Below are positions 4,257 through 17,501 of a DNA stretch of 24,000 nucleotides, one piece after another; positions within the stretch are counted from its first letter, which is position 1, and every line of letters starts with the position of its first letter. Source of the stretch: Bacillota bacterium (GTDB lineage Bacteria; Bacillota; Clostridia; Acetivibrionales; DSM-1351); assembly GCA_023443515.1 (NCBI GenBank), contig JAEZUC010000079.1:23664-47663 (forward strand). The letters run 5' to 3'. The notes beneath the pieces are model-generated. The model had not been told where the DNA came from. It made no database searches and was given only the letters and a program-made list of their open reading frames with translations. The position numbers and the translations under genes were made by a program.

Positions 4257-4961
4257 ATGATACGGATTTCCCTTTGCGATGATGAAAACCAAATTACTGG
4301 AACATTAGCCGCCAACCTAAAAGGCATAAGGCCTGATATAGAAGTACTTTCCTATGATAGCGGAGAGAACTTGCTCGAAAGTAAATATCTGTATAACGAT
4401 ATAGTATTACTGGACATTGAGATGAACGGAATAAACGGTATTGAAACGGCCATTGAGCTTCGCAAAGGCGGCTATGAAGGAATGATTATATTTCTAACAT
4501 CTCACAAGGAAATGGTTTTTGATTCTTTTCGGGTCAAGCCGTACAACTATATTGTTAAGCCCATTGATATAAATAAAGTTAACAATATACTCAACAATGC
4601 CATAAATGAAATTATAGACAGGAAAACTACCCATTTCGAAGCCGTGTGCAACAATCGTACTTTCAGAATACAGCTAGAAGACATTTATTACTTTGAGTGT
4701 AACGGTAGAAAAGTTGATATTTATTCAAAAAACGGGACAATTACTATTTTGGGAAAAATGAATCAAATAGAAGCCTCTCTCAGAAATAAGCAGTTTTTCA
4801 GGTGCCATAAGGGTTATCTTGTAAATCTAGAGCACGTTTGCGAATTTTCAAATAATGAGATTATTTTGACCAATAACCAGAAGGTTTTAATCAGCAGACT
4901 AAAAATTAATTTATTCAAGGAGGCTTTTAAGGCGTTTATGAAAGGAAATATAAAATGCTAG
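4257..4961 (+). CDS. LytTR-family (AgrA/ComE/PlnC-like) response regulator
   Basis: N-terminal receiver (ISLCDDE...VLLDIEMNGINGIE...IIFLTSH) and a C-terminal LytTR-type DNA-binding region (IYYFE...RCHKGYLVNL). The stop overlaps the start of the downstream kinase. Confidence 0.88.
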   Translation: MIRISLCDDENQITGTLAANLKGIRPDIEVLSYDSGENLLESKYLYNDIVLLDIEMNGINGIETAIELRKGGYEGMIIFLTSHKEMVFDSFRVKPYNYIVKPIDINKVNNILNNAINEIIDRKTTHFEAVCNNRTFRIQLEDIYYFECNGRKVDIYSKNGTITILGKMNQIEASLRNKQFFRCHKGYLVNLEHVCEFSNNEIILTNNQKVLISRLKINLFKEAFKAFMKGNIKC

Positions 4962-6283
4962 TGATTTTGGCAAACAGCCTAATTGATTTAATTTCAAGTA
5001 TATTTGAAATACTGATTTTTGTTTTTATGATTTCAATATTTTTAGACTTTACCGAAAGAGCCAATAAAAACGTAATACTATATTTTGTTATATACGGATT
5101 GCTTAAAGTTGTCAAAATTATTTTTCCTATTGTATTTTTAGTTGACTTTATCACTTCTGTATTTGTACTGATTTTTGTTTTTATTGCTTTCAAAGGGAAC
5201 ATTGCACACAAATTATTTGCATTTTCTACAGCGGTTTGTCTTAACTATGTTGTTGATATTTTTATTATCTCCTTTACAAACATGGGATTTAATTATAATT
5301 TGTTTTTCAGCACATTATCCGGAGGAGTAAGGGGTATATGGGTTACCATAATCAAAATTATACTGGTTATTCTTGTATACATACTACTGAAGAACTTTGC
5401 CACTACCACAACATTAAAAATAAATATACTTTCATCTGTTCAGACCTTAATTCTCATCATGCTTCCTGCCTTCAGCTTTGCTACAATCACAATTCTTGAC
5501 TGGGGAGTAAGGAATTTTGTAGATGTACCTGTAAATACTTCAGCATTCCTGCTTATAGCATCCTTATGCACAATAATATATAACGTAATAGTAATGATTT
5601 TAATTGATAAGATGATTCTTAATAAAAAATATAAACATCTCAATGAAATGTCAGAAGCTCAGCTTAGAACACAGTTCAATCATTACGAACAGATAATGAG
5701 TAAAAACCAGGAAACCAGGAAGCTAAAACATGATATGAAAAATCATCTTAGATTAATTAGAACCTTGATAGAAAATAATGACATAGATGAAGCAAAGGAG
5801 CTCCTTGACGAGATTGAGGATACTATGCGCGGACTTGACCTTGAAATAAGCAGCGGTAATAGTATCACAGATGCAATATTAAACGAAAAGAACAAGATGG
5901 CACATAATCTGGGAATAAAATTTGAGTTTTCCGGGATATTGCCAAGGGAGAACTTTATAAATCCCTTTGATATCAGTACAATTTTTTCAAATGCTTTGGA
6001 TAATGCTATAGAAGCAGCTGTGAAGTCCGATGACTCTGAGAGGTTTATCAGGGTTTTCACATACATTCAGGGCAAATGCCTGTTTATTTTAATTGAAAAT
6101 TCAGTTGAAAAGGATATTAAAATTACAGGAAAAGAGATTGAGTCTACAAAACAAAACAAGGAACATCACGGCTTTGGCCTCAAAAATATTAATGACAGCG
6201 TGGAAAAGTACGGAGGCGGACTGAGTATTATTTGTGAAAATAAAGTATTCAAACTGGAAATATTACTTAATATAAAAATATAA
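4955..6283 (+). CDS. AgrC-like (HPK10-type) polytopic sensor histidine kinase with GHKL ATPase domain
   Basis: About 6-7 hydrophobic helices in the first ~220 aa. H-box KLKHDMKNHL, N-box FSNALDNAIEA, G-box HGFGLKNI. A 7-nt overlap with the RR gene suggests translational coupling. Confidence 0.85.
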   Translation: MLVILANSLIDLISSIFEILIFVFMISIFLDFTERANKNVILYFVIYGLLKVVKIIFPIVFLVDFITSVFVLIFVFIAFKGNIAHKLFAFSTAVCLNYVVDIFIISFTNMGFNYNLFFSTLSGGVRGIWVTIIKIILVILVYILLKNFATTTTLKINILSSVQTLILIMLPAFSFATITILDWGVRNFVDVPVNTSAFLLIASLCTIIYNVIVMILIDKMILNKKYKHLNEMSEAQLRTQFNHYEQIMSKNQETRKLKHDMKNHLRLIRTLIENNDIDEAKELLDEIEDTMRGLDLEISSGNSITDAILNEKNKMAHNLGIKFEFSGILPRENFINPFDISTIFSNALDNAIEAAVKSDDSERFIRVFTYIQGKCLFILIENSVEKDIKITGKEIESTKQNKEHHGFGLKNINDSVEKYGGGLSIICENKVFKLEILLNIKI

Positions 6284-6289
6284 AACATG

Positions 6290-6351
6290 CATTTTGTGAC
6301 ATTATAGAGACATGTTATGTAAAAAATATTGAATATAACTGTAAATATAAT
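6290..6351 (+). promoter_or_regulatory. Putative LytTR-dependent promoter of the pheromone gene: two 9-bp direct repeats 21 bp apart, plus a -10 box
   Basis: CATTTTGTG (6290-6298) and CATGTTATG (6311-6319) match at 7/9 with a 21-bp period. TATAAT is at 6346-6351, and the -35 (AAAATA at 6323-6328) is poor, as expected for an activator-dependent promoter. Confidence 0.4.
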
Positions 6352-6399
6352 AAACTGTATTTGGTTGAAGTTATGACATTGCCAAATACAGTTTTTTTT
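6352..6399 (+). terminator. Rho-independent terminator/attenuator between the kinase gene and the peptide gene
   Basis: Perfect 13-bp inverted repeat AAACTGTATTTGG (6352-6364) / CCAAATACAGTTT (6382-6394) with a 17-nt loop, followed by a T-run through 6399. It abuts the AGGAGG of the next gene. Confidence 0.6.
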
Positions 6400-6412
6400 A
6401 AGGAGGATTTTT

Positions 6413-6568
6413 ATGAGTAAGAAAAACGTTTGTATGGATATTAAGGCAGATCAATTTGTAGATTTAAATAATGAAGAGGCTATGCAGATAGATGGTGGGA
6501 TTGATTCGCCAAGGCAATGCGTTAATACTATTATTATAGGTATAATTAAGATTATAAATTATTTTTAA
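6413..6568 (+). CDS. Double-glycine-leader peptide precursor (51 aa); candidate secreted peptide pheromone or small class II bacteriocin
   Basis: Not in the ORF track (too short). AGGAGG at 6401-6406 lies 6 nt before ATG 6413. Translation: MSKKNVCMDIKADQFVDLNNEEAMQIDGG|IDSPRQCVNTIIIGIIKIINYF. The leader fits the GG-leader pattern (L-x-x-E-E-x-x-x-I-x-GG). The predicted mature peptide of 22 aa starts at nt 6500. Confidence 0.75.
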   Translation: MSKKNVCMDIKADQFVDLNNEEAMQIDGGIDSPRQCVNTIIIGIIKIINYF

Positions 6569-6596
6569 AGGCTATCAATTTTTGTAAGAATAGAAG

Positions 6597-6872
6597 GTGG
6601 AATTAATTGTAAGTTTGTCTTTTTTAAATAGCGAACCGGATTGTATGGATAAAGCCCGTACTTCGTTTATTTTGGGTATAGTTGATACCGTGGCTTGGCT
6701 ATTGCCTATTATAGGGATTCCGGTTTCAATTGTAGGACTGATATTAGGGATACTTGGTATAAAATCAACTAAAAGATGGATGGCAGTTGTAGGTATTATG
6801 CTTTCTAGTATTTTTCTTGTTGCGGCAATAATCAACGTAATAATAGGAGCATTAAACCAACTTGGTAAATAA
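6597..6872 (+). CDS. Small two-TM membrane protein (DUF4190-like pattern); candidate immunity/accessory protein
   Basis: Two hydrophobic helices (FILGIVDTVAWLLPIIGIPVSIVGLILGILGI and WMAVVGIMLSSIFLVAAIINVIIGAL). The start is ambiguous: GTG 6597 sits too close to GAAGG, and TTG 6615 or ATG 6645 are alternatives. Confidence 0.6.
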   Translation: MELIVSLSFLNSEPDCMDKARTSFILGIVDTVAWLLPIIGIPVSIVGLILGILGIKSTKRWMAVVGIMLSSIFLVAAIINVIIGALNQLGK

Positions 6873-6902
6873 GGTGTTTTATAAGCTCAAAGGAGAATTT
6901 AA

Positions 6903-7301
6903 ATGGCACTATCAGCAGTAGAAAAGGACTATCGATTGAGAAATGTCCTTACTTTAAGAAAAAAAATGACAAGCCGAGAAGTCATATTGGAGATTTTGAA
7001 GTTAAAAAAATTTCTTAAAGACAACGGGCTAAAAAAGAATGGATTCATAACAACGGTAACATTTTCAATAGAGATGCAAGACGGAGTACCTTTAATAGAT
7101 ATGGAAATACTTGTTCCGTTACCAAAAAGAGTAACCATAACGAATGAATATATTTTTAAACCTATTTTTCATGTGGTTAATGCGGTATGTATTTCAAAAG
7201 AAAGTGATAAGGAAACAAGCAGAATACATAATTTATTGTGTTGGAATATCTACGACAAAATAATGGGAAGCAAACAGCAAAAGGATTTTCTTCTAGCTTG
7301 A
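6903..7301 (+). CDS. Truncated/degenerate paralog of the GyrI-like (SbmC-fold-like) protein at 10714-11184
   Basis: AGGAG at 6891-6895. It aligns with the 156-aa paralog through ...EYIFKPIFHVVNAV, then diverges. It has an internal deletion and stops right after a shared KDFL motif, so the final beta-strands (MVIDVYIGV) are missing. It may be a decaying duplicate. Confidence 0.6.
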   Translation: MALSAVEKDYRLRNVLTLRKKMTSREVILEILKLKKFLKDNGLKKNGFITTVTFSIEMQDGVPLIDMEILVPLPKRVTITNEYIFKPIFHVVNAVCISKESDKETSRIHNLLCWNIYDKIMGSKQQKDFLLA

Positions 7302-7338
7302 TATATATAGTACTTTTTAATTTTATTAGCTTTTCCGA

Positions 7339-7358
7339 AATATCGGTTTACCGATATT
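7339..7358. repeat. 20-bp palindrome AATATCGGTttACCGATATT
   Basis: Perfect 9-bp arms (7339-7347 and 7350-7358) with a 2-nt spacer. The spacer is too short for a good hairpin loop, so this looks more like a dimeric regulator site. Confidence 0.35.
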
Positions 7359-7392
7359 CATTTCTATTTACAATTTATATGTAATCTTTGAA

Positions 7393-7440
7393 AAGGCGTT
7401 CAAGCTTCTAATAGTAGAAGCTGAATGCCTTTCATCTTTC
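7393..7440 (+). terminator. Rho-independent terminator ending the peptide / TM-protein / GyrI-like unit
   Basis: AAGGCGTTCAAGCTTCTA (7393-7410) pairs with TAGAAGCTGAATGCCTT (7415-7431), with one bulge, then a T-rich tail. Confidence 0.65.
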
Positions 7441-7493
7441 TATCTCTGTAAAGAACAAAGAAGTAGAAGATAGAGAATCAATATAACAGTATA

Positions 7494-7521
7494 TTTACAA
7501 ATTATGATATAAATGTATAAT
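7494..7521 (+). promoter_or_regulatory. Putative sigmaA promoter of the hydrolase-HK-RR operon
   Basis: TTTACA (7494-7499), 16 bp spacer, TATAAT (7516-7521). It lies ~37 bp upstream of the TTG start at 7558. Confidence 0.5.
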
Positions 7522-7557
7522 ATATTTAGATTTTAATATTTTTAAGGTGATGCTATA

Positions 7558-8532
7558 TTGAATAAATTTATATCCGAACAAATAGACAGATTATCTCTCC
7601 GACAACTACATAAAAGAAAAAGTTTCGTTTCACATTTTATAGCACCAAACATGCAACCCGTAAAATCAGGCGAGTTTTCTTCATATTTTGATACTCCGTC
7701 CATCCCGAAAATAAAATTACAGGAGGAAAAGAATTCATATTATACTACAGGAACATTTTCATATGACAGTCAGATAAGAAATAACAACAAAAGTAATGAA
7801 AAAGTTTTTGGATACTATCACAGAAATTCAAACGATGAGGATTCAACCAATGTAATTCTTGTTCATGGATGGAGAATGGATGATTACAAGAACATTGACA
7901 GTATTTATTTAAAAAGCTTTTTGGATTCAGGATATAATGTTTATCACTTTATAATGCCGTATCATTTTCAGAGGAACTCAAATGAATCCACATATAATGG
8001 GGAACTGTTTGTTACCTCTAACATTGATAGGACACTATTATCAGTAAAACAGGCTGTATCTGATTTAAGGGCATTGGTTAAATGGCTTAAATCAAACACA
8101 CAAGGTAAAGTTATACTAATAGGAGTAAGTCTTGGAGGCTTTTTGACAAATCTGACAAGTGCTGTAGAGAGGGATATTGATATACTGATATCCGTATTTT
8201 ATGCAAATAGTCTGGCAAACGCTGTCTGGAATACAATACCCGGAAAGTACATAAAGAACGATTTTATTAAAAGTTCATTTTCATATGAACAATTATTGAA
8301 CTATTGGGTCGTTATCACCCCCAGCTTATACCAGCCCGCTATTCCTAAAAACAATATATTACTGTTAAGTGCTGCTTATGACCAATACATAAGCTTGGAA
8401 GATTCCAACGAATTATGGTCAAAATGGGGAAAACCTCAAAGGCATATTTACAATTGCGGACACTCAGGCATTGTACTTTTGAGAAATATAATAAGAAAGG
8501 ATTCTTTAGAGTTTATTAATAGCAAACTATAG
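7558..8532 (+). CDS. Alpha/beta-fold serine hydrolase (unknown substrate)
   Basis: Oxyanion region ILVHGW; nucleophile elbow GVSLGG; candidate acid in LLLSAAYDQY; candidate His in NCGHSG. TTG start with AAGGTGA at 7544-7550. Confidence 0.75.
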   Translation: MNKFISEQIDRLSLRQLHKRKSFVSHFIAPNMQPVKSGEFSSYFDTPSIPKIKLQEEKNSYYTTGTFSYDSQIRNNNKSNEKVFGYYHRNSNDEDSTNVILVHGWRMDDYKNIDSIYLKSFLDSGYNVYHFIMPYHFQRNSNESTYNGELFVTSNIDRTLLSVKQAVSDLRALVKWLKSNTQGKVILIGVSLGGFLTNLTSAVERDIDILISVFYANSLANAVWNTIPGKYIKNDFIKSSFSYEQLLNYWVVITPSLYQPAIPKNNILLLSAAYDQYISLEDSNELWSKWGKPQRHIYNCGHSGIVLLRNIIRKDSLEFINSKL

Positions 8533-8547
8533 GTTGGTGGATTATAT

Positions 8548-9945
8548 ATGTTGGTTTTATTTATTGCATTATGGGTAATAGCAGGTATACTCATAAGAAC
8601 TGATCCCCATAATCGGGCCACAAGGTGGGGGAGTGCCCTTGCTTTTTTTTCAGGTTTTGGAGGTCTGGGAATTTTTCTAAGAGAATATTCTTTCACGCTC
8701 TCGGACACTAATACTAAATTTATAATTTATTCGGCAACATCGTTCATGTTCACATTGTCTACCCAAATAGCTCCGTATATTGTTTTAATATATAGTATTA
8801 TATATACAGGAACATTAAATAATTTTAAATTTATTTCTAAATATTGCCACGTCATATTTTTTATTCCGGTAATAATAATGTATTTGATTTACCCGTCTAT
8901 ACCGGATTATAGACCATCATTTTTAATTCTTAGCCTATGGGTTGTACCCTATGTACTTTTTGCAAACTACCTGTTGATTTATTCATATAAAGCTGAGAAA
9001 AATGCACGTAAAAAGCAGCAAAGATTGCTTACTTGCATATTAATTACGCCTACAACCCTGTTTGCTATTACGGCTAATTATATTTTAAGAGCATTCCGGA
9101 TTGAGAGTATATGGAGATATAATGCGATTACAATATCGGTCGCTTTCATAATATTCGTATATGCAAGCTTCAGGTATGGAGTTATGGGGGTTAGAGTTAA
9201 ATTTGAAAAATACCGTTTGGACAGTACTATTAAGGCTATAACCTCAGGAACATCAATTATGAATCATAGTATAAAGAATGAGATTATAAAAATAGGAATG
9301 TGTACAAATACGATTAAATCCAAACTTAAAAATCAAAATATCAATATCCCGGATATTGACGAAAATATTGGATTTATTCTTGATTCTAGTGATTACCTTA
9401 CAAAGATGGTTAAGCATATTCAGAAGCATATTCAAGAGATTACCTTGAATGAGCAGGTTAATAATGTTAAGGATATATTTACAAACTCTATAAACATGGT
9501 AATTCCATTTATAAAAAATAAAGAAATCATACTGGAAAACAATTTTCACAATGACATTTTTATAAAATGTGATAGCCTTCATATTCAGGAAGTGTTTCAT
9601 AATGTATTAAAAAATGCCATAGAAGCGGTGGAAGAGGCAGGTAAACTCAAGATAGATGCTGTTTCAAATAAATCAACATTTATTATTGCTATAAGTGACA
9701 CTGGATGCGGAATATCAAAAGAAAATCTTCCTTATGTATTTGATCCGTTTTTTTCCACTAAACGAACCAGTAATAATTTTGGACTGGGGCTATCATATTG
9801 TGTTAACGTTATGAACTTACATGGTGGTAAATTGGAAGTAATCAGCGAAAAAAATGTGGGAACAACGATACAAATTATTTTTCATAAAAGTAGAGTATCC
9901 GGTTTGCTTGATAAGCAAATCAAAAGGAGTTTGGTCAATGGATAA
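8548..9945 (+). CDS. Polytopic (about 6-7 TM) sensor histidine kinase, HisKA/HATPase_c type, with no obvious extracytoplasmic domain
   Basis: Hydrophobic N-terminal ~210 aa. H-box IMNHSIKNEI, N-box NVLKNAIEAV, DTGCGI, FDPFFSTK, GLGLSYC. It starts 15 nt after the hydrolase stop. Confidence 0.85.
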   Translation: MLVLFIALWVIAGILIRTDPHNRATRWGSALAFFSGFGGLGIFLREYSFTLSDTNTKFIIYSATSFMFTLSTQIAPYIVLIYSIIYTGTLNNFKFISKYCHVIFFIPVIIMYLIYPSIPDYRPSFLILSLWVVPYVLFANYLLIYSYKAEKNARKKQQRLLTCILITPTTLFAITANYILRAFRIESIWRYNAITISVAFIIFVYASFRYGVMGVRVKFEKYRLDSTIKAITSGTSIMNHSIKNEIIKIGMCTNTIKSKLKNQNINIPDIDENIGFILDSSDYLTKMVKHIQKHIQEITLNEQVNNVKDIFTNSINMVIPFIKNKEIILENNFHNDIFIKCDSLHIQEVFHNVLKNAIEAVEEAGKLKIDAVSNKSTFIIAISDTGCGISKENLPYVFDPFFSTKRTSNNFGLGLSYCVNVMNLHGGKLEVISEKNVGTTIQIIFHKSRVSGLLDKQIKRSLVNG

Positions 9946-10573
9946 AATACAGGTAATGATAGTTGAGGATGATCCTGCATGGATTAAAATATTAAATTCT
10001 TTTCTTTCGCAGGAGGAGGATATATTTGTTAAGGCTTCAGCAAACAGTAAAGACGAAGCTGTACGGCTGGCGATAGATATCAAAATAGATGTAATAATTA
10101 TGGACATTAATTTGTCTGAAAACCTTAAGGATGGGGTTGTTGCAGCACTTGAAATAAAGGAATTTTCCGATTCCAAAATAATCATGTTAACATCGTATAA
10201 TGACGATGAACTAATCAAAGATTCCTTTGAAGTTGGAGCTGTAGATTATCTTCTAAAAGAGGATTATTTGGATTTGCCAAACACAATAAGAAAAACATAC
10301 AACAATCGCTCGTCAATACAGGTAATTCTTAATGACTATGCAAGACTTAAAAAAGATGAAAGGTTAAGGGAATTGACAACAGCAGAAAAGGAAGTATTTG
10401 AACTTATAGAACAAGGACTTTCCCAATCACAAATTGCTACAAAATTATCAAAGACAAACAACACGTTGCGTACACAGGTCAAGAATATACTAAAAAAACT
10501 TGGAGCTAAAAATAGTAAGGAAGCTGTAAAAAAAATTAAATACAAGGATATTTTCCACAAATATAAACTATAA
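9938..10573 (+). CDS. NarL/LuxR-family response regulator (REC + LuxR-type HTH)
   Basis: The start MDKIQVMIVEDDP is preceded by AAAAGGAG and overlaps the kinase stop by 8 nt. Phosphoacceptor context VIIMDINL. C-terminal HTH LTTAEKEVFELIEQGLSQSQIATKLSKTNNTLRTQVKNILKKLG. The 9854 start in the ORF track is an over-extension. Confidence 0.88.
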   Translation: MDKIQVMIVEDDPAWIKILNSFLSQEEDIFVKASANSKDEAVRLAIDIKIDVIIMDINLSENLKDGVVAALEIKEFSDSKIIMLTSYNDDELIKDSFEVGAVDYLLKEDYLDLPNTIRKTYNNRSSIQVILNDYARLKKDERLRELTTAEKEVFELIEQGLSQSQIATKLSKTNNTLRTQVKNILKKLGAKNSKEAVKKIKYKDIFHKYKL

Positions 10574-10576
10574 AAA

Positions 10577-11184: not shown

Positions 11185-11318
11185 TTACCTGCTGTAAGCC
11201 ATGGGACAGTAGTTAATATAAACTATGAATGTAAAAACTTTATTATTGAAGTTTATGCGCAGAATGGAGAGAAGAGGATACATTTGTAGAAAAATTAGAT
11301 AAAAGTGAGGTAGAAATT

Positions 11319-11555: not shown

Positions 11556-11572
11556 GATAGGAGGTGCAAGTT

Positions 11573-11791
11573 ATGGGAGACTTCATTGAATTAAATTATG
11601 AAGAAATTCAAGCTATAGAAGCTGGCGGATTATTGTCTGCGGTTTGTGGAGCAGCAGCAGGTGCCATTGTTGGATTGTATGTTGGTGGTACCGCAGCAGC
11701 AATAAGTGGTGATTCAAAAAATATTGTCCAGTCTGTAATTGCGGGTGCATCAACAGGATTATGGGTGGGGTTGGGCTGCCCTATTCCGTAG
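11573..11791 (+). CDS. Class II (GG-leader) bacteriocin precursor, peptide 2 of a putative two-peptide pair
   Basis: GGAGG at 11559-11563 favours ATG 11573 over GTG 11564. The leader MGDFIELNYEEIQAIEAGG (GG codons at 11624-11629) is followed by a 53-aa Gly/Ala-rich core with GxxxG motifs (GAAAG, GAIVG, GLYVG, GLWVG) and Cys near both ends (positions 6 and 50). Confidence 0.8.
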   Translation: MGDFIELNYEEIQAIEAGGLLSAVCGAAAGAIVGLYVGGTAAAISGDSKNIVQSVIAGASTGLWVGLGCPIP

Positions 11792-11804
11792 ATAAATAAT
11801 TTAA

Positions 11805-11855
11805 GAACCAGATATGCGGATTAAAATTATTCTGCATATTTGGTTCTGGATTTTT
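11805..11855 (+). terminator. Rho-independent terminator after the bacteriocin genes
   Basis: GAACCAGATATGCGGA (11805-11820) pairs with TCTGCATATTTGGTTC (11831-11846), with two G-U positions, followed by TGGATTTTT. Confidence 0.7.
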
Positions 11856-11947
11856 ACTGGTACTGTATTAATTACAGGCACTGAACGCATTAGCAAGAAT
11901 TAATATATATAATAAATATAAATAAAATGTCTAGGGAGAATTTTATT

Positions 11948-12163
11948 ATGAGTATTAAGAATAAGTTATTTGTAAAAAAGATATTTAAAAAATTCATACC
12001 AATGTGTATTGCTATATTAGGATTATATCTTTTAGATATATATTATTTTAGACGGGATGAATTCAGGATCAGTTATGTAATAATTATAGTAATAACTTGT
12101 TTTGCTGTTGTGACCATATCAAGTATTGTAAATACAAAAAAAGATAATAATGGAGTTAGCTAA
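11948..12163 (+). CDS. Small two-TM membrane protein; candidate bacteriocin immunity/accessory protein
   Basis: AGGGAGA at 11933-11939 favours ATG 11948 (MSIKNKLF...). Two hydrophobic helices (FIPMCIAILGLYLLDIYYF and ISYVIIIVITCFAVVTISSIV). TAATG overlap with the ABC transporter start. Confidence 0.6.
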   Translation: MSIKNKLFVKKIFKKFIPMCIAILGLYLLDIYYFRRDEFRISYVIIIVITCFAVVTISSIVNTKKDNNGVS

Positions 12164-14361
12164 TGCAAACCCTATTCAAACATTTCTACTGTGTCAAACA
12201 ACATGACATAACAGATTGCGGAGCAGCTTGTCTGGCTACTATCAGCAAGCAGTACGGTTTTAAAACTTCAATAACAAAAATAAGAGAGATTGCAGGAACA
12301 GACAAACAAGGTACAAATGCATATGGAGTGATAAAGGCAGCTGAGAGTCTTGGTTTCACAGCCAAGGGAGTAAAGGGAAATCAGGAGGCCTTTTTTTCTG
12401 AGTTTCCTTTGCCATGCATAGCACATGTTGTCGTCGAAGGTACATTGCTTCACTATGTGGTTATACATAAGATAACAAAAAAGCAGGTTATCGTTGCTGA
12501 CCCCGGAAAGGGTATAGTCAAGTATGTTCCGGAGGAATTCTTTAAAATCTGGACTGGTGTACTTATATTGATGGTTCCTAATGTTACTTTTAGCAAGGGT
12601 AATAATACAAAGGGCCTTTTTTCCCGTTTCTCTAATTTGCTGATGCCTCAGAAGAAGCTACTTGTAAATATATTTTTTACATCTCTCATATACACTATTT
12701 TAGGTATTTTGGGATCTTTTTATTTTAAATTCCTTTTGGATGACATTTTGCAGTACAATCTGGAAAAGACCTTGCATGTTATATCCATAGGCATTATTCT
12801 GCTCTACCTTTTCCAGACTCTATTGGGAGCATTTCGTTCTCACATGGTTCTGTACTTGTCACAAAAAATTGATATACCTCTTATACTGGGGTACTATCAG
12901 CATGTTCTGGGACTTCCAATGAATTTTTTCGGAACAAGAAAGGTTGGAGAAATCGTATCCCGTTTTATGGATGCCTCAAAGGTAAGAGATGCCATATCAG
13001 GTGCAACGCTTACCATAATGATAGATACCCTGATGGCTGTGGCAGGAGCTGTTATTCTATACATGCAGAATTCTACATTGTTTATAGTTGCGGTAGTAAT
13101 AGCGACTATATATGGCATTATTGTTTTTGCATTTAATAAGCCAATCAAAAAAGTAAATCAAGAACAAATGGAAGAGAATGCACAGCTTACCTCCTACCTT
13201 GTAGAATCACTGAATGGAATTGAAACAGTTAAAACCTTCAACGCCGAGGAGGAAGCATCCCTTAAAACCGAAACAAGGTTCGTAAAGCTACTTCGCTCGA
13301 TATTCAAAGGCGGTGTAATTAATAATTTTCGTTCATCAATTACATCCTTCACTGCATTGGCGGGAGGAACAGTCATATTGTGGGTGGGTGCATGGAATGT
13401 AATAAAAGGAAACATGACAGTAGGTCAATTGCTTGCATTTAATGCTCTGCTGGGATACTTTCTGGAACCTATCAAAAACCTCATCAATCTCCAACCAATG
13501 ATACAAACAGCAGTAGTAGCATCAGACAGACTAGGTGAAATATTTGACCTGGAATTGGAAAAGAGTGAAAAAGAGAACGAAAAGATTAAACCCCTTGATT
13601 TAAAAGGTGACATAACCTTTAAAAATGTAGATTTCAGGTATGGAACACGTTCCCTTGTACTAAAAAATATTAATATTACCATAAAGCAGGGCGAAAAAAT
13701 TGCATTGGTAGGGGAAAGCGGGTCGGGTAAAACCACTCTTGTTAAGCTTTTATTGAACCTGTATACCTGGGAAAAAGGCGAAATAGCAATAAAAGACTAT
13801 AACATAAAGGATATATCCTTTGAGTCCCTGAGAGAAAAACTTGCATACATATCCCAGGATATATTCATGTTCAGCGGAACAATACGGGAAAATCTAACCC
13901 TTGGTGACAAAAATATTAGTATGGAAGAAATTATCGAGGCTTGTAAAATGGCACAGGCACATGAATTTATAAACAAGCTTCCATTGCGGTATGAGACTTA
14001 TTTGGAGGAAAACGGTGCAAATTTGTCTGGAGGACAAAAACAAAGGCTTGCTATAGCCAGAGCAATTTTGAAAAAACCCGACATATTTATAATGGACGAG
14101 GCAACCAGTAATCTTGATTCAATTTCAGAGAAGGCCATAGAGAAAACACTGGAAACTGTTTGCAGCGGAGTAACAACGATTATAATAGCACACAGACTAA
14201 GCACTATAAAACGATGTGACAGGATTTTTGTAATGGAAGACGGCAGTATTATGGAACACGGTAGCCATCAGGAGCTTATGGCACTTGGAGGAAAGTATTT
14301 TGAGTTATGGAAGGAGCAATTAACTGAAAAAGAGGAACAAACCATAGGAGGGAAGGTTTAA
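12163..14361 (+). CDS. Peptidase-C39-containing ABC transporter (PCAT; bacteriocin/pheromone maturation and export, ComA/LagD/CvaB type)
   Basis: N-terminal C39 domain with an intact catalytic Cys (QHDITDCGAACLATISKQYG; Cys codon at 12217-12219), plus HYVVIH and VADPGKG. Six-helix TMD. Walker A GESGSGKTT, signature LSGGQKQR, Walker B IFIMDEATS. Confidence 0.93.
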   Translation: MQTLFKHFYCVKQHDITDCGAACLATISKQYGFKTSITKIREIAGTDKQGTNAYGVIKAAESLGFTAKGVKGNQEAFFSEFPLPCIAHVVVEGTLLHYVVIHKITKKQVIVADPGKGIVKYVPEEFFKIWTGVLILMVPNVTFSKGNNTKGLFSRFSNLLMPQKKLLVNIFFTSLIYTILGILGSFYFKFLLDDILQYNLEKTLHVISIGIILLYLFQTLLGAFRSHMVLYLSQKIDIPLILGYYQHVLGLPMNFFGTRKVGEIVSRFMDASKVRDAISGATLTIMIDTLMAVAGAVILYMQNSTLFIVAVVIATIYGIIVFAFNKPIKKVNQEQMEENAQLTSYLVESLNGIETVKTFNAEEEASLKTETRFVKLLRSIFKGGVINNFRSSITSFTALAGGTVILWVGAWNVIKGNMTVGQLLAFNALLGYFLEPIKNLINLQPMIQTAVVASDRLGEIFDLELEKSEKENEKIKPLDLKGDITFKNVDFRYGTRSLVLKNINITIKQGEKIALVGESGSGKTTLVKLLLNLYTWEKGEIAIKDYNIKDISFESLREKLAYISQDIFMFSGTIRENLTLGDKNISMEEIIEACKMAQAHEFINKLPLRYETYLEENGANLSGGQKQRLAIARAILKKPDIFIMDEATSNLDSISEKAIEKTLETVCSGVTTIIIAHRLSTIKRCDRIFVMEDGSIMEHGSHQELMALGGKYFELWKEQLTEKEEQTIGGKV

Positions 14362-14362
14362 A

Positions 14363-16240
14363 ATGAAGGAAATTTTAGTTGACATAAATGAACTTACGGA
14401 CAGCCGTGAAATGTATCATACAAAACCTCACCCATTTGTATGGATATTTACATATATTTTACTGGGGTTGGTTATAGTAGCTGTAACATGGGCAGCATTT
14501 GGAAAAAAGGAAATAGTAGTAAAGGCCTCCGGCCAGGTACGGCCTGAATCCGGAATAAGTACTGTCAGGAATATTGTTGAAGGGGAGCTGAAAAGTACTA
14601 ATTGTAGACAGGGAATGTCAGTAATGGCGGGAGAAATTTTATACATAATCAAACATGACAATCTTCTGGTGGAAAGGGAGTCGGCGGAAGTAAAGCTTAA
14701 AGAGTTGGAAAAAGAGTTGGAAAACCTTCAAATATATAGAAAATGCATTTCGTCAGAAGAAAACAATTTTGATCCTGCAAAGGAGCCTGTATATTATGAA
14801 AAGGTTAGAAAGCTTTTGATGGATATAAAATTTTCGCAAACTGATACGGCCTATAAAACTACAAGGCTTAGTGAAGAAAAGCTTCTGAACAGTACACAAC
14901 TGAGCAAAAATCTTAAAGAGATAGAATTCTTAAAAAAGTATATAAAATCCTTGGATAACAATAGAAATTATTTAAATTCAGGAAATGAACTGGAAAAGCA
15001 GTACAAACAGAAATATGATAAGTATCTTATAGCAAAAACAGAAATACAAAGAAAATATGACCAACAAGCTAATGAAATAAAGAGTAACAGCCCTGAAGCC
15101 ATGAAACAGTCACTGGAGGAGGAAAAATCCCAGTTAAGGGCATATGAGACACTGAAAAAGAGCATCGGCGAAGCAAAAAATAATTTTCAGTCCGGGGATA
15201 GGTATTCATATCTTTATACGGAATATGAAAATAGATTTAACTTTCTGAAAAATACATACGAGGAGAAAAAACGATTATACGAGGCATACCTTTCATTGAG
15301 CGGAATAGCCATTACAAAATCCGAGCTGGAGGATGCACGAGTGCAAATGCAGAATGCGCAAGGAGAATATACATCCTATAAAAGCAAGTTTATGTCTGAA
15401 TTGGAAAATAATATAAATAATATACAAATCAGCATAAAAGAAAAAGAAAGTAAGGTTTCCGGTACACAGGACAAACAGGGGTTTCTTAATTTAAATGAAA
15501 AGGACAGAAAAAACAGCTTGAAAGCACTGTATTTGCAGGAGAGAAATGATGCAGCCCAAGCAATAGACAATTTAACGGATACGGTGGGAACGCTGAAACA
15601 AAAAAATGTCCTTTCAGATGCAGAACTAAAAACCATAACCGAAGCAGACGGTCAAAATGAAGACTCCTTGAACTACTCACTGGTAGAAAGAACAAAGGTT
15701 CAGGAAGTTGTTGTCACTGATGAAAAGATTAAAGCAGTAACAGATAGTATTACAGGAGTTAGAGAAAATATTAAAAAACTGGAACTGAGTATAAACAATG
15801 CCATTGTAAAGGCCAGTGTAAACGGAACCGTTAACATAATCGCGGAAATGTACCCCGGGGATTTGATGCCGGCAGGAGCTGAAATATTAACGATAATCCC
15901 TAACACCAATTCAGCTTTTAAAATGCAGATGACTGTCAGCAATAAAGACATAGGTGAAATAAATACAGGGGATACGGTTAAATATAGCTTTGCAGCCCTA
16001 CCTTACAGGGAATACGGACAGGTAGCAGGAAAAATAACAAGTATATCAAAGGATGCAGTCAATAACTCAAGCGGTCAAAGCTATTATGTCGTCGAAGCCA
16101 CCGTTCCCGTAACAAAACTGGTCAGCAATTCGGGGAGACAGGGAGAAATAAAGGCAGGAATGATATGTGAAGCAAATGTAATAACGAAGCAAAAGAGCTT
16201 TTTACGCTATTTTCTTGAAAAAATAAATTTGCTTGATTAA
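14363..16240 (+). CDS. HlyD-family membrane fusion/accessory protein with an unusually long coiled-coil region (625 aa)
   Basis: N-terminal anchor FVWIFTYILLGLVIVAVTWAAF. A lipoyl-like half (VKASGQVRPES...). About 350 aa of heptad-rich, K/E/Q/L-rich sequence. C-terminal beta-barrel region (VKASVNGTV...AGMICEANVITKQKSFLRYFLEKI). It starts 1 nt after the ABC transporter stop. Confidence 0.85.
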   Translation: MKEILVDINELTDSREMYHTKPHPFVWIFTYILLGLVIVAVTWAAFGKKEIVVKASGQVRPESGISTVRNIVEGELKSTNCRQGMSVMAGEILYIIKHDNLLVERESAEVKLKELEKELENLQIYRKCISSEENNFDPAKEPVYYEKVRKLLMDIKFSQTDTAYKTTRLSEEKLLNSTQLSKNLKEIEFLKKYIKSLDNNRNYLNSGNELEKQYKQKYDKYLIAKTEIQRKYDQQANEIKSNSPEAMKQSLEEEKSQLRAYETLKKSIGEAKNNFQSGDRYSYLYTEYENRFNFLKNTYEEKKRLYEAYLSLSGIAITKSELEDARVQMQNAQGEYTSYKSKFMSELENNINNIQISIKEKESKVSGTQDKQGFLNLNEKDRKNSLKALYLQERNDAAQAIDNLTDTVGTLKQKNVLSDAELKTITEADGQNEDSLNYSLVERTKVQEVVVTDEKIKAVTDSITGVRENIKKLELSINNAIVKASVNGTVNIIAEMYPGDLMPAGAEILTIIPNTNSAFKMQMTVSNKDIGEINTGDTVKYSFAALPYREYGQVAGKITSISKDAVNNSSGQSYYVVEATVPVTKLVSNSGRQGEIKAGMICEANVITKQKSFLRYFLEKINLLD

Positions 16241-16280
16241 ATCGCTGTAAAGGTTAAATAAATTATAGGAGTGAGATTAA

Positions 16281-17501
16281 ATGTTAAAGAAAAAGTTTAG
16301 CATAGTTATATTAGTTTTATTTTTGCTGGCTGCACCGATTAATGCCGTGAGAGCCGCTTACGTTGTTCCACTTGATAAATGGAGTTTGGGAGATAGCTTT
16401 ACTCTGCAATACGGTACGGGAAATTCAACAAAGTACACATATGACGAAATGCAGAATCTGTATTTAAATAATTACTATAATGTTCAGAGCACAGAAATTG
16501 ATATAGAAAACAGCAATCTGCTTTACCATCAGTATTCTTTGGAGCTTGATAAGGTTAATAATGATATTGTAAACATAAAAAAACTCATTGAACAAAATAA
16601 GGACGTCGATGAATATCAAAAGCAACTGGCTGATCTAATAACACTAAAGGCAGAATTGTACGTGGAAAAGGAAACCAGTAAGTTTATGTATAATAATTCA
16701 GACCTGTATCGGAACATTAAACGTACTTCACAATTATCCTTATTCAGAGACAATATATATAATACGAAACTTTTGTACGAAAAAGGCTTGGTTCAGAAAA
16801 CACTGGCCGAGTATGCAAGATTACAAGCAAATGCAAGAGAGATAAACAAATCAAAAGATATGGCCTTCCAGTCAGATATAGACTTATATACTGCTGATTA
16901 TGACTATTATATCAGTCGGCAGGAATTACTTACCCAGCAAGTCAGCGCAAATATGGAGAATCTATTGAGCAGCAGCGGGATGGACACAGCAAGGGCGGTA
17001 ACAATCAGCGTTCCTGTAGCACCACTTAGGGTTATTCCACTCAAAAATTATTCAGACGTAGAAAAAAGCAGTTACTTTAATGATTATAAAAGTATGCAGT
17101 TAGGAGAAAAGCTACGGATTCTGGACGGAAAGATAAGCATATTGAAAGAATACTATAAGGATTCATCCAACGAGGTAAAGCTGGCTTTGAACGAAAAAAA
17201 ACAGGCAGAGCTTGAGGCAAGGAGATGGCTTGTTCAAAGAAGAGCTATACTTCAGAATTATTACTCTGCTTATAAAAACAAATATGTTGAAGCAGGAATA
17301 AAAGAAAAGAAAGCAAATGCACTCTACCACAAGTACCTGATAATAAAAAATAAATACAACTACAACCTTGCAACCGAGCTGTCTTTAAAGAAAGCTGAAG
17401 TAGATTACAAAACAGCAGTGCAAGAAGCCTGGGACATTTTTTGCGGATATGTGGAACAACTTGGTAAAATTGAAAAGGCAATAAGTGGAAACATAGAATA
17501 G
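16281..17501 (+). CDS. Secreted coiled-coil protein with TolC/OEP-like two-repeat organisation (tentative outer-channel-like partner of the ABC/HlyD pair)
   Basis: Signal peptide MLKKKFSIVILVLFLLAAPINAVRA|A (AxA site). Two internally similar halves, each beginning with a 'YTYDEMQNLYLNNYYNVQS'/'KNYSDVEKSSYFNDYKSMQL'-type segment and ending with an 'ATELSLKKAEVDYKTAVQEAW'-type segment. This resembles the OEP repeat logic. AGGAG RBS. The family call is by pattern only. Confidence 0.45.
   Translation: MLKKKFSIVILVLFLLAAPINAVRAAYVVPLDKWSLGDSFTLQYGTGNSTKYTYDEMQNLYLNNYYNVQSTEIDIENSNLLYHQYSLELDKVNNDIVNIKKLIEQNKDVDEYQKQLADLITLKAELYVEKETSKFMYNNSDLYRNIKRTSQLSLFRDNIYNTKLLYEKGLVQKTLAEYARLQANAREINKSKDMAFQSDIDLYTADYDYYISRQELLTQQVSANMENLLSSSGMDTARAVTISVPVAPLRVIPLKNYSDVEKSSYFNDYKSMQLGEKLRILDGKISILKEYYKDSSNEVKLALNEKKQAELEARRWLVQRRAILQNYYSAYKNKYVEAGIKEKKANALYHKYLIIKNKYNYNLATELSLKKAEVDYKTAVQEAWDIFCGYVEQLGKIEKAISGNIE

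Follow-up and report, generated by a model that had tools for sequence, protein, structure and literature searches.

Why should a single bacterial locus carry two different two-component systems (TCSs) when it encodes only one exporter? We addressed this question for the window (the whole 24 000 nt stretch of DNA analysed here), comparing it with related loci.

Gene content of the locus

All of the genes named in a preliminary description were found on the + strand at the coordinates it gave, and gene content and family matches agree with the composite it set out, in which two different TCSs share a locus with three GG-leader peptides and a three-part exporter. The features are as follows.

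4257–4961, +, RR1: response regulator of the resident 'type A' circuit (Pfam LytTR 2.1e-23, Response_reg 8.9e-13)
4955–6283, +, HK1: AgrC/ComD-type (HPK10-like) polytopic histidine kinase (Pfam HATPase_c_5 4.7e-26)
6413–6568, +, pep1: 51-aa GG-leader precursor, leader ...NNEEAMQIDGG
6597–6872, +, small 2-TM protein, immunity-like: two hydrophobic segments, weak DUF4190 match
6903–7301, +, DUF5085a: 132 aa, C-terminally truncated DUF5085/GyrI-like paralogue
7440–13148, +, imported 'type B' segment: absent from L013, L001 and L002
7558–8532, +, alpha/beta-hydrolase: cytoplasmic, ABHD18/RcgR-like (Pfam Abhydrolase_6/ABHD18)
8548–9945, +, HK2: polytopic histidine kinase (Pfam HATPase_c 2e-21)
9938–10573, +, RR2: NarL/LuxR-type response regulator (Response_reg 2.2e-17, GerE 9.3e-10)
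10714–11184, +, DUF5085b: full-length DUF5085/GyrI-like protein (Pfam DUF5085 29.5 bits)
11319–11555, +, pep2: 78-aa GG-leader bacteriocin precursor (Pfam Bacteriocin_IIc 32.1 bits)
11573–11791, +, pep3: 72-aa GG-leader glycine-zipper-rich precursor, leader ...EEIQAIEAGG
11927–12163, +, small 2-TM immunity-like protein: two hydrophobic segments
12163–14361, +, chimeric C39 peptidase-ABC exporter (TIGR01193 702 bits, Peptidase_C39 1.6e-40)
14363–16240, +, HlyD/LcnD-type membrane-fusion accessory protein: 625 aa (HlyD_3 1.2e-13)
16281–17501, +, p406: secreted, 406 aa, TolC-like fold in the AlphaFold2 model

The locus is a genuine gene cluster for a peptide pheromone and a two-peptide bacteriocin, and belongs to a Gram-positive bacterium resembling Ruminiclostridium. 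An identical copy is present on each of 10 contigs, which come from several sequencing runs, so the composite is not a one-off. Compared with L071, a related locus described below, all of its genes have dN/dS values of 0.05–0.37 and are therefore under purifying selection.

Two modules with separate histories

In R. papyrosolvens C7 (L013) and two MAGs (L001 and L002), the same chromosomal site holds only the LytTR circuit, pep1, the 2-TM protein, the truncated DUF5085 gene and ABC-HlyD-p406. Relative to these genomes, the window has approximately 5.7 kb of additional sequence (approx. 7440–13148). This stretch runs from the hydrolase, HK2 and the LuxR-type regulator through DUF5085b, a pair of GG peptides with glycine zippers and an immunity gene into the ABC gene, of which it covers the 5' 985 nt; only about 95 bp stand in its place in the insert-less genomes. 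Backbone homology to them, as judged by blastn, ends at 7439. Elsewhere the additional block, module B, is autonomous with its own exporter (L040 and L129), and 7548–11396 of the window is 86% identical to L040; a Paenibacillus locus (L015) has module B without the hydrolase. The ABC gene itself is chimeric, with a type-B-like 5' third and a type-A-like remainder. Informative sites place the breakpoint at approximately 13146–13150 (102 type-B-like and 37 type-A-like sites to the left, 33 and 123, respectively, to the right; Fisher p 8e-20). The 5' 985 nt are 90% identical to L040 and 78–83% to L013, L001 and L002, while the 3' part is 82–87% identical to the latter three and 78% to L040.

A second composite lineage (L071–73) shares the gene order of the window but has other junctions and cargo: the ABC gene of L071 is type-A-like throughout, and its left junction and cargo peptides are unlike those of the window. 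Between the window and L071, dS is 0.11–0.32 in the insert and 0.57–1.4 in the backbone, and the backbone of the window is nearer to the insert-less genomes than to L071. The much lower dS of the insert, together with the differing junctions and cargo, therefore points to modules with separate histories. Consequently, the neighbourhood comparison goes largely against inheritance of the locus as one block: the insert-less site, the autonomous block, the chimeric ABC gene, the differing junctions and cargo and the dS values all separate the sub-modules. The canonical full LytTR version of the locus is seen in L003, with the order RR-HK-inducer peptide-DUF5085-two peptides-ABC-HlyD-p406-like. The composite arose twice at one site, which could mean that the combination is selected for.

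The composite might instead be ancestral, with L013, L001 and L002 having lost the cassette by deletion and no import at all. Decay is frequent in bacteriocin loci, DUF5085a is truncated in all lineages, and remnants of HK2 (17–108 nt of its 5' end beside the stand-alone hydrolase copies L075 and L076, and a 46-aa fragment in L079) indicate that cassette deletions do happen. Deletion fits poorly, however, with an ABC 5' end that is closer to the separate L040 than to the site-matched relatives, with an insert dS 3- to 10-fold below that of the backbone between the two composite lineages, with the proximity of the window's backbone to insert-less genomes, or with the differing junctions of the two composites. 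We consider this history, already disfavoured, to be improbable.

The hydrolase-HK2-RR2 triad

The hydrolase scores 101 bits against the NCBIfam RcgR model, below the cutoff of 182. It is followed by a kinase and regulator also in Paenibacillus (L078) and the B. cereus group (L080), and in 13 of the 34 hydrolase loci with enough downstream sequence (three genome-derived, plus metagenome contigs). Hydrolase, HK and LuxR-type regulator are thus a conserved, portable triad across Firmicutes. HK2 shares 92% amino acid identity with its counterpart in L040 and has full-length relatives at 33–40% identity in Paenibacillus and Bacillus, every one of them adjoined by a response regulator. Pfam finds no HisKA domain in HK2, although an H-box (NHSIKNE) can be seen. 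Gene calls on an identical contig suggest that RR2 starts at 9938 rather than 9854. Although first described as unrelated, this second TCS is a regulator that travels with the DUF5085/two-peptide cassette.

The resident LytTR circuit

RR1 is 89–92% identical at the amino acid level to its counterparts in L013, L001 and L002 (dN/dS 0.07–0.09), and HK1 has approximately 6–7 TM/hydrophobic segments (dN/dS 0.05). The putative pheromone is the mature pep1 22-mer, IDSPRQCVNTIIIGIIKIINYF; four other lineages (L001, L002, L013 and L071) have a nearly identical mature part, and pep1 is the sole GG peptide in the insert-less relatives. It has no glycine zipper, yet the conserved, truncated DUF5085a sits downstream, which we count against our preferred explanation. 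For the intervening 2-TM gene (6597–6872; dN/dS ~0.1), gene callers place the start at 6645. A search of the sequence preceding pep1, RR1 and the ABC gene gave no canonical LytTR boxes (9-bp direct repeats approx. 21 bp apart).

DUF5085 proteins and the two-peptide cassette

The two proteins first described as GyrI-like paralogues are reinterpreted here as DUF5085 proteins, with the GyrI-like fold retained. They are 46% identical (E 2e-34). In every lineage, DUF5085a is missing some 35 conserved residues (~35 aa) at the C terminus; its dN/dS is 0.17–0.23. DUF5085b falls just under the Pfam DUF5085 cutoff (29.5 versus 30 bits), while 12 of 15 family members match. Its AlphaFold2 (AF2) model (pLDDT 90.6) has a GyrI-like fold (TM 0.75–0.81), with structural neighbours that include the sequestration-type resistance proteins CtaZ, STM3175 and SbmC. 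DUF5085 genes adjoin Gly/Ala-rich glycine-zipper GG peptides in at least nine loci from several families. The family is known for cytoplasmic immunity proteins that sequester the glycine zippers of T7SS toxins (PMC12744356, PMC10434224); among its members, ExiAB and TipE bind the zipper and neutralize glycine-zipper toxins in the cytoplasm (PMC12744356, PMC10434224). By analogy, DUF5085b is a putative cytoplasmic sequestering immunity factor.

The leader of pep2 is kept in L040, L071 and L003 while its mature part varies, and pep3 has six overlapping [GAS]xxxGxxx[GAST] motifs and 39% Gly+Ala. The following 2-TM gene (11927–12163), whose stop overlaps the ABC start codon, has a counterpart of the same type at the matching position in L040, L015 and L071.

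It is conceivable that the peptides are not antimicrobial, the locus being a pure signalling or competence-like system, or pep2 and pep3 exported membrane peptides of another role, with the DUF5085 proteins as small-molecule-binding regulators. The GyrI-like fold is shared with the effector-binding domains of BmrR, EcmrR and Rob, many DUF5085 relatives carry AraC-family or effector-binding source annotations, and pep1-only loci of the L013 type have an exporter and no obvious toxin. However, neither DUF5085a nor DUF5085b has a DNA-binding domain (Pfam, AF2 model), pep2 exceeds the Pfam Bacteriocin_IIc cutoff (32.1 versus 27.1 bits), the class IIb pattern, a pair of GG peptides with a small TM gene after it, recurs in many loci, and the experimentally studied DUF5085 members are anti-toxin immunity proteins. 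We therefore give this reading very little credence.

The export module

The C39-ABC protein scores well above the TIGR01193 cutoff (702 versus 524 bits). The HlyD protein, with one N-terminal TM, matches TIGR01843 and TIGR01000 below their cutoffs and has precomputed HB_LcnD/LcnD_C/Beta-barrel_AprE matches. For the third component, described earlier as TolC-like, the resemblance is one of fold. The p406 AF2 model (pLDDT 87.9, pTM 0.79) retrieved only TolC/OprM/CmeC/CusC-type structures among the top 42 Foldseek PDB matches, but p406 has no match in Pfam or NCBIfam, and sequence comparison of its family with OEP proteins found no similarity (Pfam; hhalign against OEP-like proteins of other Firmicute loci). 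Its stubby predicted strands, of 5–7 residues, would not suffice for a barrel that spans a membrane. Among 1.84 billion representatives, only 10 clusters belong to the family, which is restricted to Ruminiclostridium (dN/dS of p406, 0.13–0.18). OEP-family proteins occupy the p406 position in L019 (32.5 bits, above cutoff) and L012, and TolC-like proteins are described from pump operons of Firmicutes that are monoderm and bear an S-layer (PMC8809574).

Transcription units and cross-talk

Hairpins are predicted at all four sites proposed previously. The first (6352–6399; 14 bp plus a U-run, dG −16.5, z −3.6) lies in the HK1-pep1 gap, an intergenic region almost invariant in five lineages; that this terminator-like element directly precedes the pep1 RBS counts against our preferred explanation. 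Strong hairpins close the pep1 unit (7389–7434; dG −26.3, z −6.2) and follow pep3 (approx. 11798–11855, plus U5; dG −26.1, z −7.0). The GC-rich 10-bp hairpin after RR2 (10576–10598; dG −13.4, z −2.9) is conserved in L071 and L040, but no T-run follows on the + strand, making it a weak terminator. Four transcription units are plausible.

A 9-mer, ATAACWGTA, occurs exactly three times in the 24 kb (0.69 expected by chance), in every case shortly before a −10 box, namely those of pep1 (6335), the hydrolase (7483) and DUF5085b (10624). This is the only hint of cross-talk between the circuits. The RR1 and pep1 promoters also share a 26-nt element (85% identity).

The two TCSs might form a designed cascade. 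For example, a quorum signal through pep1/HK1/RR1 could license either the exporter or the hydrolase-HK2-RR2 operon, with RR2 in turn starting bacteriocin production. Both sequence elements, the stability of the composite on its 10 contigs, purifying selection throughout and the need for a single exporter to serve both circuits would suit this scheme. So would the two or more origins of the composite at one site, with junctions that differ, as these are compatible with the combination being selected for. Each module is, however, a stand-alone locus elsewhere with a different evolutionary history, the 9-mer is only partly conserved in the orthologous promoters of L071, L040 and L075, and no recognizable LytTR or NarL operator pairs were found. 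Hierarchical control by design is accordingly doubtful.

A locus probably built from recombined modules

We favour, with a probability of about 0.65, a functional class II pheromone/bacteriocin locus built by homologous recombination from two autonomous modules with the roles proposed below. The locus owes its two sensing circuits to recombination between a resident locus and a self-contained bacteriocin cassette that carried a regulator of its own, which makes it an evolutionary mosaic rather than a purpose-built hierarchy. The resident module A comprises RR1(LytTR)-HK1-pep1-2TM-DUF5085a and, downstream, ABC-HlyD-p406. Here, the C39-ABC protein would cut pep1 at the GG site and export it, HK1 would sense the 22-mer and RR1 would autoinduce the pep1 unit. 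The imported module B (approx. 7440–13148) would have brought hydrolase-HK2-RR2(LuxR), followed by DUF5085b-pep2-pep3-immunity, along with the C39 and first TM part of the ABC protein. HK2/RR2 is probably the cassette's own regulator, given an adjacency conserved from Clostridia to Paenibacillus. Together, pep2 and pep3 may form a two-peptide, glycine-zipper, membrane-active bacteriocin; DUF5085b, by analogy with ExiB and TipE, would prevent the glycine-zipper peptide(s) from doing damage in the cytoplasm until their export, while the 2-TM protein of module B would guard against the secreted peptide. All three peptides would leave via the one chimeric ABC protein. Its partners, the long HlyD and p406 with its TolC fold, probably provide a conduit across both the thick wall and the S-layer. 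Recombination would thus have juxtaposed both circuits, any cross-control being secondary.

Comparison with known systems

Class IIb loci with three-component regulation include pln of Lactiplantibacillus plantarum, blp of Streptococcus pneumoniae, cbn and sak. Like these two-peptide bacteriocin loci (reviewed in PMC2850506), the window pairs an HPK10-type kinase and a LytTR regulator with an inducer peptide that has a GG leader, places a small gene for membrane immunity after two neighbouring GG-leader GxxxG peptides, and encodes a C39-ABC exporter with an accessory protein. It differs in its RR-HK-peptide gene order, in that the search for LytTR direct-repeat boxes gave no clear ones, in the added LuxR-type TCS with hydrolase and DUF5085 genes, and in its 625-aa accessory protein, which is followed by a third component of TolC fold. 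Parts of the combination, for which the preliminary description knew no described example, have precedents: TolC-like proteins in monoderm Firmicutes (PMC8809574) and DUF5085 immunity proteins (PMC12744356, PMC10434224).

The ABC-adaptor-third component gene order resembles HlyB-HlyD-TolC and the loci of monoderm TolC-like proteins (PMC8809574). p406 shares with TolC/OMF proteins a signal peptide, a duplicated long-helix topology and Foldseek matches to OMF structures only, but differs in having no Pfam OEP match, strands too short for a barrel and a Ruminiclostridium-restricted family. Unlike those of TolC/OMF type I secretion, the substrates here are GG-leader peptides.

ExiA/ExiB (S. aureus) and TipE (S. 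gallolyticus) are DUF5085 cytoplasmic immunity proteins for T7SS LXG glycine-zipper toxins (PMC12744356, PMC10434224). As there, small soluble DUF5085/GyrI-like proteins lie beside genes for glycine-zipper, membrane-active toxins, with separate membrane immunity proteins alongside and two paralogues per locus. The putative toxins of the window are, however, GG-leader peptides of ~50 aa exported by an ABC transporter rather than LXG proteins using the T7SS, DUF5085a is truncated, and toxin binding by the window's DUF5085 proteins is putative. DUF5085b also has the fold of CtaZ (R. cellulolyticum), AlbA/STM3175 and SbmC (TM 0.64–0.75) and presumably likewise protects the producer by binding a toxic product; those proteins bind small molecules or protect gyrase, whereas the presumed ligand of DUF5085b is a hydrophobic peptide helix.

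RcgR, encoded on Rhizobium favelukesii pLPU83a, acts by a mechanism that is itself not known (PMC13055273). The window's hydrolase is homologous to it over nearly the full length (E 7e-29), and both genes lie beside a LuxR-family regulator circuit. RcgR belongs to NCBIfam NF047337, 'putative quorum lactone hydrolase', but the hydrolase scores well below that family's cutoff and comes from another phylum and context. In Bacillus subtilis, peptide-sensing ComP-ComA pairs a polytopic kinase of the HisKA_3 type with a LuxR-type regulator and has ComQ/ComX as partner. HK2/RR2 similarly pairs a multi-TM sensor kinase with a NarL/LuxR-type regulator in a peptide-linked locus; unlike ComP, HK2 has a HisKA-like H-box, a hydrolase partner and no dedicated pheromone gene.

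In the com-blp system of Streptococcus pneumoniae, two peptide circuits share exporters; both are LytTR-type and lie at separate loci, with recombination hot spots, variable cargo and 'cheater' variants. The window would likewise have two peptide-sensing circuits with a common C39-ABC export step, a recombination hot spot and variable cargo, but its second circuit consists of a polytopic HK and a LuxR-type RR and lies physically inside the first locus.

Gene content of the locus

ORF listing and profile searches recovered every gene element named in the preliminary description, all on the forward strand.

Genes of the composite locus
4257–4961, +, RR1, LytTR-domain regulator (LytTR 2.1e-23)
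4955–6283, +, HK1, AgrC-type GHKL kinase (HATPase_c_5 4.7e-26)
6413–6568, +, pep1, 51-aa peptide with a double-glycine (GG) leader
6597–6872, +, two-transmembrane (2-TM) protein
6903–7301, +, DUF5085a, GyrI-like, 132 aa
7558–8532, +, alpha/beta-hydrolase (predicted catalytic Ser in GVSLGG)
8548–9945, +, HK2, polytopic kinase
~9938–10573, +, RR2, LuxR/GerE-type regulator (Response_reg 2.2e-17; GerE 9.3e-10)
10714–11184, +, DUF5085b, 156 aa, paralog of DUF5085a (46% identity)
11319–11555, +, pep2, GG-leader peptide (Pfam Bacteriocin_IIc 32.1 bits, cutoff 27.1)
11573–11791, +, pep3, GG-leader peptide
11927–12163, +, 2-TM protein, overlapping the ABC start codon
12163–14361, +, C39-ABC exporter (TIGR01193, 702 bits)
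14363–16240, +, HlyD/LcnD-type adaptor, 625 aa
16281–17501, +, p406, secreted protein of 406 aa

The two adjacent GG-leader precursor genes of a class IIb bacteriocin are represented by pep2 and pep3, which carry two and six zipper motifs (GxxxG or glycine zipper), respectively, those of pep3 overlapping; the small membrane immunity gene of this class is represented by the 2-TM ORF at 11927–12163, whose immunity role is putative. The genes expected of a LytTR three-component circuit of the AgrCA/ComDE/PlnBCD type are also present: HK1 is an HPK10-type kinase, RR1 a LytTR regulator, and the adjoining pep1, the putative inducer, has a mature 22-mer, IDSPRQCVNTIIIGIIKIINYF, that hardly varies among the loci with an HK1 orthologue. 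RR2 is of the NarL/FixJ type, with receiver and GerE/LuxR helix-turn-helix domains. In HK2, Pfam detects HATPase_c and no HisKA or HisKA_3 domain; alignments to AtoS, KinD and ZraS span the H-box region.

Comparison with related loci

A scan with the ABC protein, taking one genome per species, yielded 67 loci, the closest being those of Ruminiclostridium papyrosolvens C7 (L013) and several ‘Bacillota’ MAGs. By tblastn and blastn, L013 and the loci of two MAGs (L001 and L002) lie at the same chromosomal site, with enoyl-CoA reductase and SecA-like genes upstream and genes for a pentapeptide protein and PGK-TIM downstream. They have RR1, HK1, pep1, the 2-TM protein, DUF5085a, ABC, HlyD and p406 in common with the window, and match it at 85–87% identity over 1852–7439 and 12162–24000. 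The 4.7 kb between these two segments corresponds to only ~95 bp in all three relatives. Window 7548–11396 instead matches a different locus, L040, at 86%; there, hydrolase, HK2, RR2, DUF5085, two GG peptides and a small TM gene precede the locus's own exporter genes, whose products match those of the window at 90% (ABC), 61% (HlyD) and 40% (p406-like) amino acid identity.

The junction on the exporter side was sought at sites in the ABC gene where the consensus of the insert-less loci (L013 = L001, ‘type A’) differs from L040. Over the first 985 nt, the window agrees with L040 at 102 sites and with type A at 37; over the remainder, it agrees with type A at 123 sites and with L040 at 33. The breakpoint that fits best lies at 13146–13150 (Fisher p 8e-20). 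Judged by this pattern of sites, the ABC gene of the window is a chimera, and the breakpoint delimits an imported segment of ~7440–13148 that supplied the exporter with its C39 peptidase domain and initial transmembrane helices. Several sequencing runs together gave 10 contigs with the identical locus.

A second composite lineage (ENA scaffolds L071–73) occupies this site too, with its genes in identical order. Its cargo peptides, of 89 and 83 aa, are L040-like, its left junction keeps ~40 more bases of backbone sequence, and the L071 ABC gene resembles type A over its whole length (identity to L013 of 92% in the 5′ part and 90% in the 3′ part). Between the window and L071, dS is 0.11–0.32 in the insert vs 0.57–1.4 in the backbone, and the window backbone is nearer to the insert-less genomes than to L071. 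Together, these differences argue that the cassette moved between lineages after their divergence, and it probably entered this slot at least twice. Values of dN/dS lie between 0.05 and 0.37 over all genes, so no gene looks like a pseudogene, including the truncated DUF5085a, the hydrolase and p406. The locus is composite, as the preliminary description held, as well as recurrent and under selection; the designed hierarchy of two two-component systems also proposed there finds no support in comparative genomics, where we see cassette exchange between autonomous loci instead.

Each module has counterparts elsewhere. L003 is a complete LytTR version, with regulator, kinase, inducer GG peptide, DUF5085, two peptides, ABC, HlyD and a p406-like gene, so the L013-type locus looks like a version in which signalling and export were retained and the two-peptide cargo is absent. 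In the window and in L071, that cargo slot is refilled. For the inserted module, a Paenibacillus locus (L015) combines an HK2-like kinase, a LuxR-type regulator, DUF5085, two Gly/Ala-rich GG peptides, a small TM gene, ABC and HlyD, and a metagenome contig (L129) has this set plus the hydrolase. The second two-component system, initially called unrelated, is therefore best read as the cassette's own regulator. No separate pheromone gene is present within this module; the bacteriocin may double as its signal, or the signal may be something that the hydrolase acts on.

Several features of the flanks were noted. A single 646-aa ORF at 18426–20366 encodes PGK (Pfam, residues 9–386) fused to TIM (residues 403–645), with 98% amino acid identity in L013, L001 and L002. 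Directly upstream of the locus, the SecA-like gene (1864–4164, 766 aa) has a dS between relatives of 0.8–1.4, vs ~0.2 for PGK-TIM, and the relatives have ~2.7 kb extra between the enoyl-CoA reductase and SecA-like genes (window junction 1851/1852); on both counts, the variable island may extend upstream of the reported locus. Convergent with p406 is a pentapeptide-repeat gene (17512–18201, reverse strand; Pentapeptide_4 5.6e-33), kept beside the locus in all type-A relatives; gyrase protectors include both pentapeptide and GyrI-like proteins. A 358-aa ORF at 22158–23234 has no Pfam match and is 93–94% identical at the amino acid level in relatives.

Promoters, hairpins and control

A generic promoter and terminator scan was uninformative because its counts equalled shuffled expectation, and hairpins were judged by folding. 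The four hairpins of the locus fold far better than shuffled controls; that at 10576–10598 has no coding-strand T-run. Across five lineages, the HK1–pep1 intergenic region (6284–6412) is almost invariant, exceeding the adjacent coding sequence in conservation. Within it, a terminator-like hairpin with a U-run (6352–6399) stops a few bases before the pep1 ribosome binding site; this hairpin, which has a TATAAT box immediately 5′ to it, could be an attenuator or leader structure.

Alignment of promoter regions revealed a conserved extended −10 promoter for RR1. Canonical LytTR box pairs (~9-bp direct repeats ~21 bp apart) were absent from 4165–4256 and 6284–6412, where nothing more was seen than GACAT repeats at a spacing of 11 nt and a 26-nt element common to the RR1 and pep1 promoters (4187–4212 and 6321–6346). 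This element is related to the motif ATAACWGTA, found exactly three times in the 24 kb (0.69 expected), at 6335, 7483 and 10624, in each case just upstream of a −10 box, in the pep1, hydrolase and DUF5085b promoters. The motif is only partially conserved in orthologous promoters, and among sequence features it alone hints at common control. Two other candidates were discarded: the palindrome GTTATGTGACATAAC at 4172, considered as an operator, is unique to the window and lacks conservation in orthologous promoters, and TGTGACAT has three matches, not clearly above chance.

The hydrolase–kinase–regulator triad

Relatives of the hydrolase at 40–50% identity are widespread across Firmicutes. A metagenome scan with the single protein found no relatives, and a profile scan found 56 loci. 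The order hydrolase–HK–LuxR regulator recurs in Paenibacillus chartarius (46, 40 and 49% identity to the hydrolase, HK2 and RR2) and in a Bacillus cereus-group genome. Among the 34 hydrolase loci with enough downstream sequence (three of them genome-derived, the others metagenome contigs), 13 have the triad, often adjoining XRE-type regulators and conjugation-like or AimR-like genes. In the Bacillus cereus-group locus (L080, 5852–10956), the triad precedes an XRE HTH gene, then a gene of the AimR family (similar to arbitrium receptors) and an ORF of 50 aa. The AimR-like neighbour raised the idea of carriage by phages, which was dropped when a hydrolase-profile scan of IMG/VR found nothing.

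Stand-alone copies of the hydrolase gene bear traces of HK2. Remnants of the HK2 5′ end lie beside close Ruminiclostridium copies (108 nt at ~11041–11098 in L076 and 17 nt at ~10978–11011 in L075), and a 46-aa HK2 fragment is found at 7984–8160 beside an Anaerobacterium copy (L079). Such remnants read as signs of decayed triads. The L075 copy and the insert-less locus L001 are in one MAG.

Of the named relatives of the hydrolase, the best is RcgR, which in rhizobia modulates plasmid transfer that depends on TraR. Assignment to the RcgR family (NF047337) was rejected because the score of 101 bits is under the curated cutoff of 182, and because the RcgR mechanism is itself unknown (PMC13055273).

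The export genes and p406

The ABC, membrane-fusion and third-component genes are contiguous (12163–17501), an order kept in seven Ruminiclostridium loci. The third component, p406, carries a signal peptide and had been described as TolC-like, a label that holds for the modelled fold and not for an OEP sequence match or for strands of membrane length. Sequence searches of Pfam (including OEP, PF02321), NCBIfam and PHROGs gave no match, and hhalign comparison with the OEP-like proteins of two other Firmicute loci (L019 and L012) gave probabilities below 1%. Among 1.84 billion representatives, only 10 clusters belong to this family, and all are near Ruminiclostridium; one member, on a contig that ends inside HlyD (L068), is 98% identical to that of the window. 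The AlphaFold2 model (pLDDT 87.9, pTM 0.79) has the duplicated strand–strand, long-helix-hairpin topology of TolC, and the top 42 PDB matches in Foldseek are all OMFs (E 1e-5 to 2e-2, TM 0.39–0.55). The predicted strands (39–44, 49–53 and 239–245) span five to seven residues, too short in this model for a membrane barrel.

From its Ruminiclostridium affiliation, we infer that the host lacks an outer membrane. TolC-like proteins have been reported in pump operons of monoderm, S-layer-bearing Firmicutes (PMC8809574). In other Firmicute loci, the third gene at the p406 position matches Pfam OEP, above the cutoff in L019 and just below it in L012. It is reasonable to suppose that the long HlyD and p406 would form a wall-spanning duct. 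Just downstream of the export genes in two Paenibacillus loci are TraB/PrgY-family proteins (L012 15234–16499, 3e-63; L029 13892–15112, 4e-70) with Cu_amine_oxidN1 domains; PrgY is known as a pheromone-shutdown protein in Enterococcus.

The DUF5085 proteins

The two paralogs first described as GyrI-like are assigned to DUF5085, a family matched by 12 of the 15 locus-linked relatives (best E 1e-10). DUF5085b itself scores 29.5 bits on Pfam PF16895, for which the cutoff is 30, and DUF5085a has no match. The AlphaFold2 model of DUF5085b (pLDDT 90.6) is a GyrI-like double-SHS2 fold, with Foldseek TM scores of 0.75–0.81 to EcmrR-C, CTR107 and CtaZ; among its structural neighbours are proteins that confer self-resistance by sequestration, namely CtaZ (R. 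cellulolyticum), STM3175/AlbA-type and SbmC. No TM segment or DNA-binding domain was found in DUF5085b. Its sequence has no significant match in the PDB, so there is no deposited ExiB-like chain for sequence comparison.

The DUF5085 proteins ExiA/ExiB and TipE neutralize glycine-zipper, membrane-depolarizing T7SS toxins in the producer cytoplasm; the zipper is bound by a hydrophobic groove of ExiB, and protection from outside is the task of separate membrane proteins (PMC12744356, PMC10434224). A DUF5085 gene lies beside the gene for a putative glycine-zipper toxin in the window and in at least eight other loci, and in ABC-anchored loci of Ruminococcus, Oscillospiraceae, Paenibacillus and Ruminiclostridium it adjoins Gly/Ala-rich GG peptides. 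By analogy, the most economical reading is that DUF5085b would be a cytoplasmic immunity or holding factor for pep2 and pep3, with the 2-TM protein as extracellular immunity. DUF5085a, whose final ~35 residues are missing in every lineage, is perhaps an ExiA-like partner.

Upstream of the autonomous L040 locus, a 1076-aa ORF with repeated P-loop motifs (12–3242) is FtsK/EssC-like by eye, which raises the possibility of T7SS genes near a DUF5085 locus. The homologues in L003 (8447–8872) and L026 (8592–9059) contain in-frame stop codons and are probably pseudogenes. In R. cellulolyticum (L137, 9001–9471), a DUF5085 gene 62% identical to DUF5085b lies between cellulosomal (dockerin) genes with no bacteriocin locus nearby, and may be an orphan immunity gene.

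Implications and comparison with known systems

A seemingly ‘designed’ two-circuit antimicrobial locus was built by cassette exchange, with recombination end-points mapped to within a few bases, inside a transporter gene. Three by-products stand out: the link between DUF5085 and GG-leader zipper bacteriocins, the TolC-fold component and the portable triad. Taken jointly, they would make DUF5085 a general class of pre-export immunity or holdase proteins, the exporter a true tripartite duct in a monoderm, and the triad an undescribed portable module, a tentative reading to which we give a probability of roughly 0.3. If it is true, the DUF5085 class spans T7SS LXG toxins and ABC-exported GG-leader bacteriocins in Clostridia and Bacilli; the bacteriocins exit via C39-ABC, a very long HlyD and a barrel-less TolC-fold protein across wall and S-layer; and the triad switches the cassette, with a hydrolase that would make or destroy the signal.

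The lineage-restricted p406 bears on the role of TolC-like proteins in bacteria without an outer membrane, and the conserved hydrolase–kinase–LuxR module identified here sits also in mobile elements of Bacillus and Paenibacillus. Many DUF5085 genes of the present kind are now mis-annotated as AraC or effector-binding regulators. The analogy with ExiB and TipE would carry the newly described DUF5085 immunity to glycine zippers from T7SS toxins to ordinary double-glycine bacteriocins. Those proteins act in a T7SS/LXG context, whereas LXG and T7SS genes are absent from the window, and its putative toxins are GG-leader peptides accompanied by an ABC exporter.
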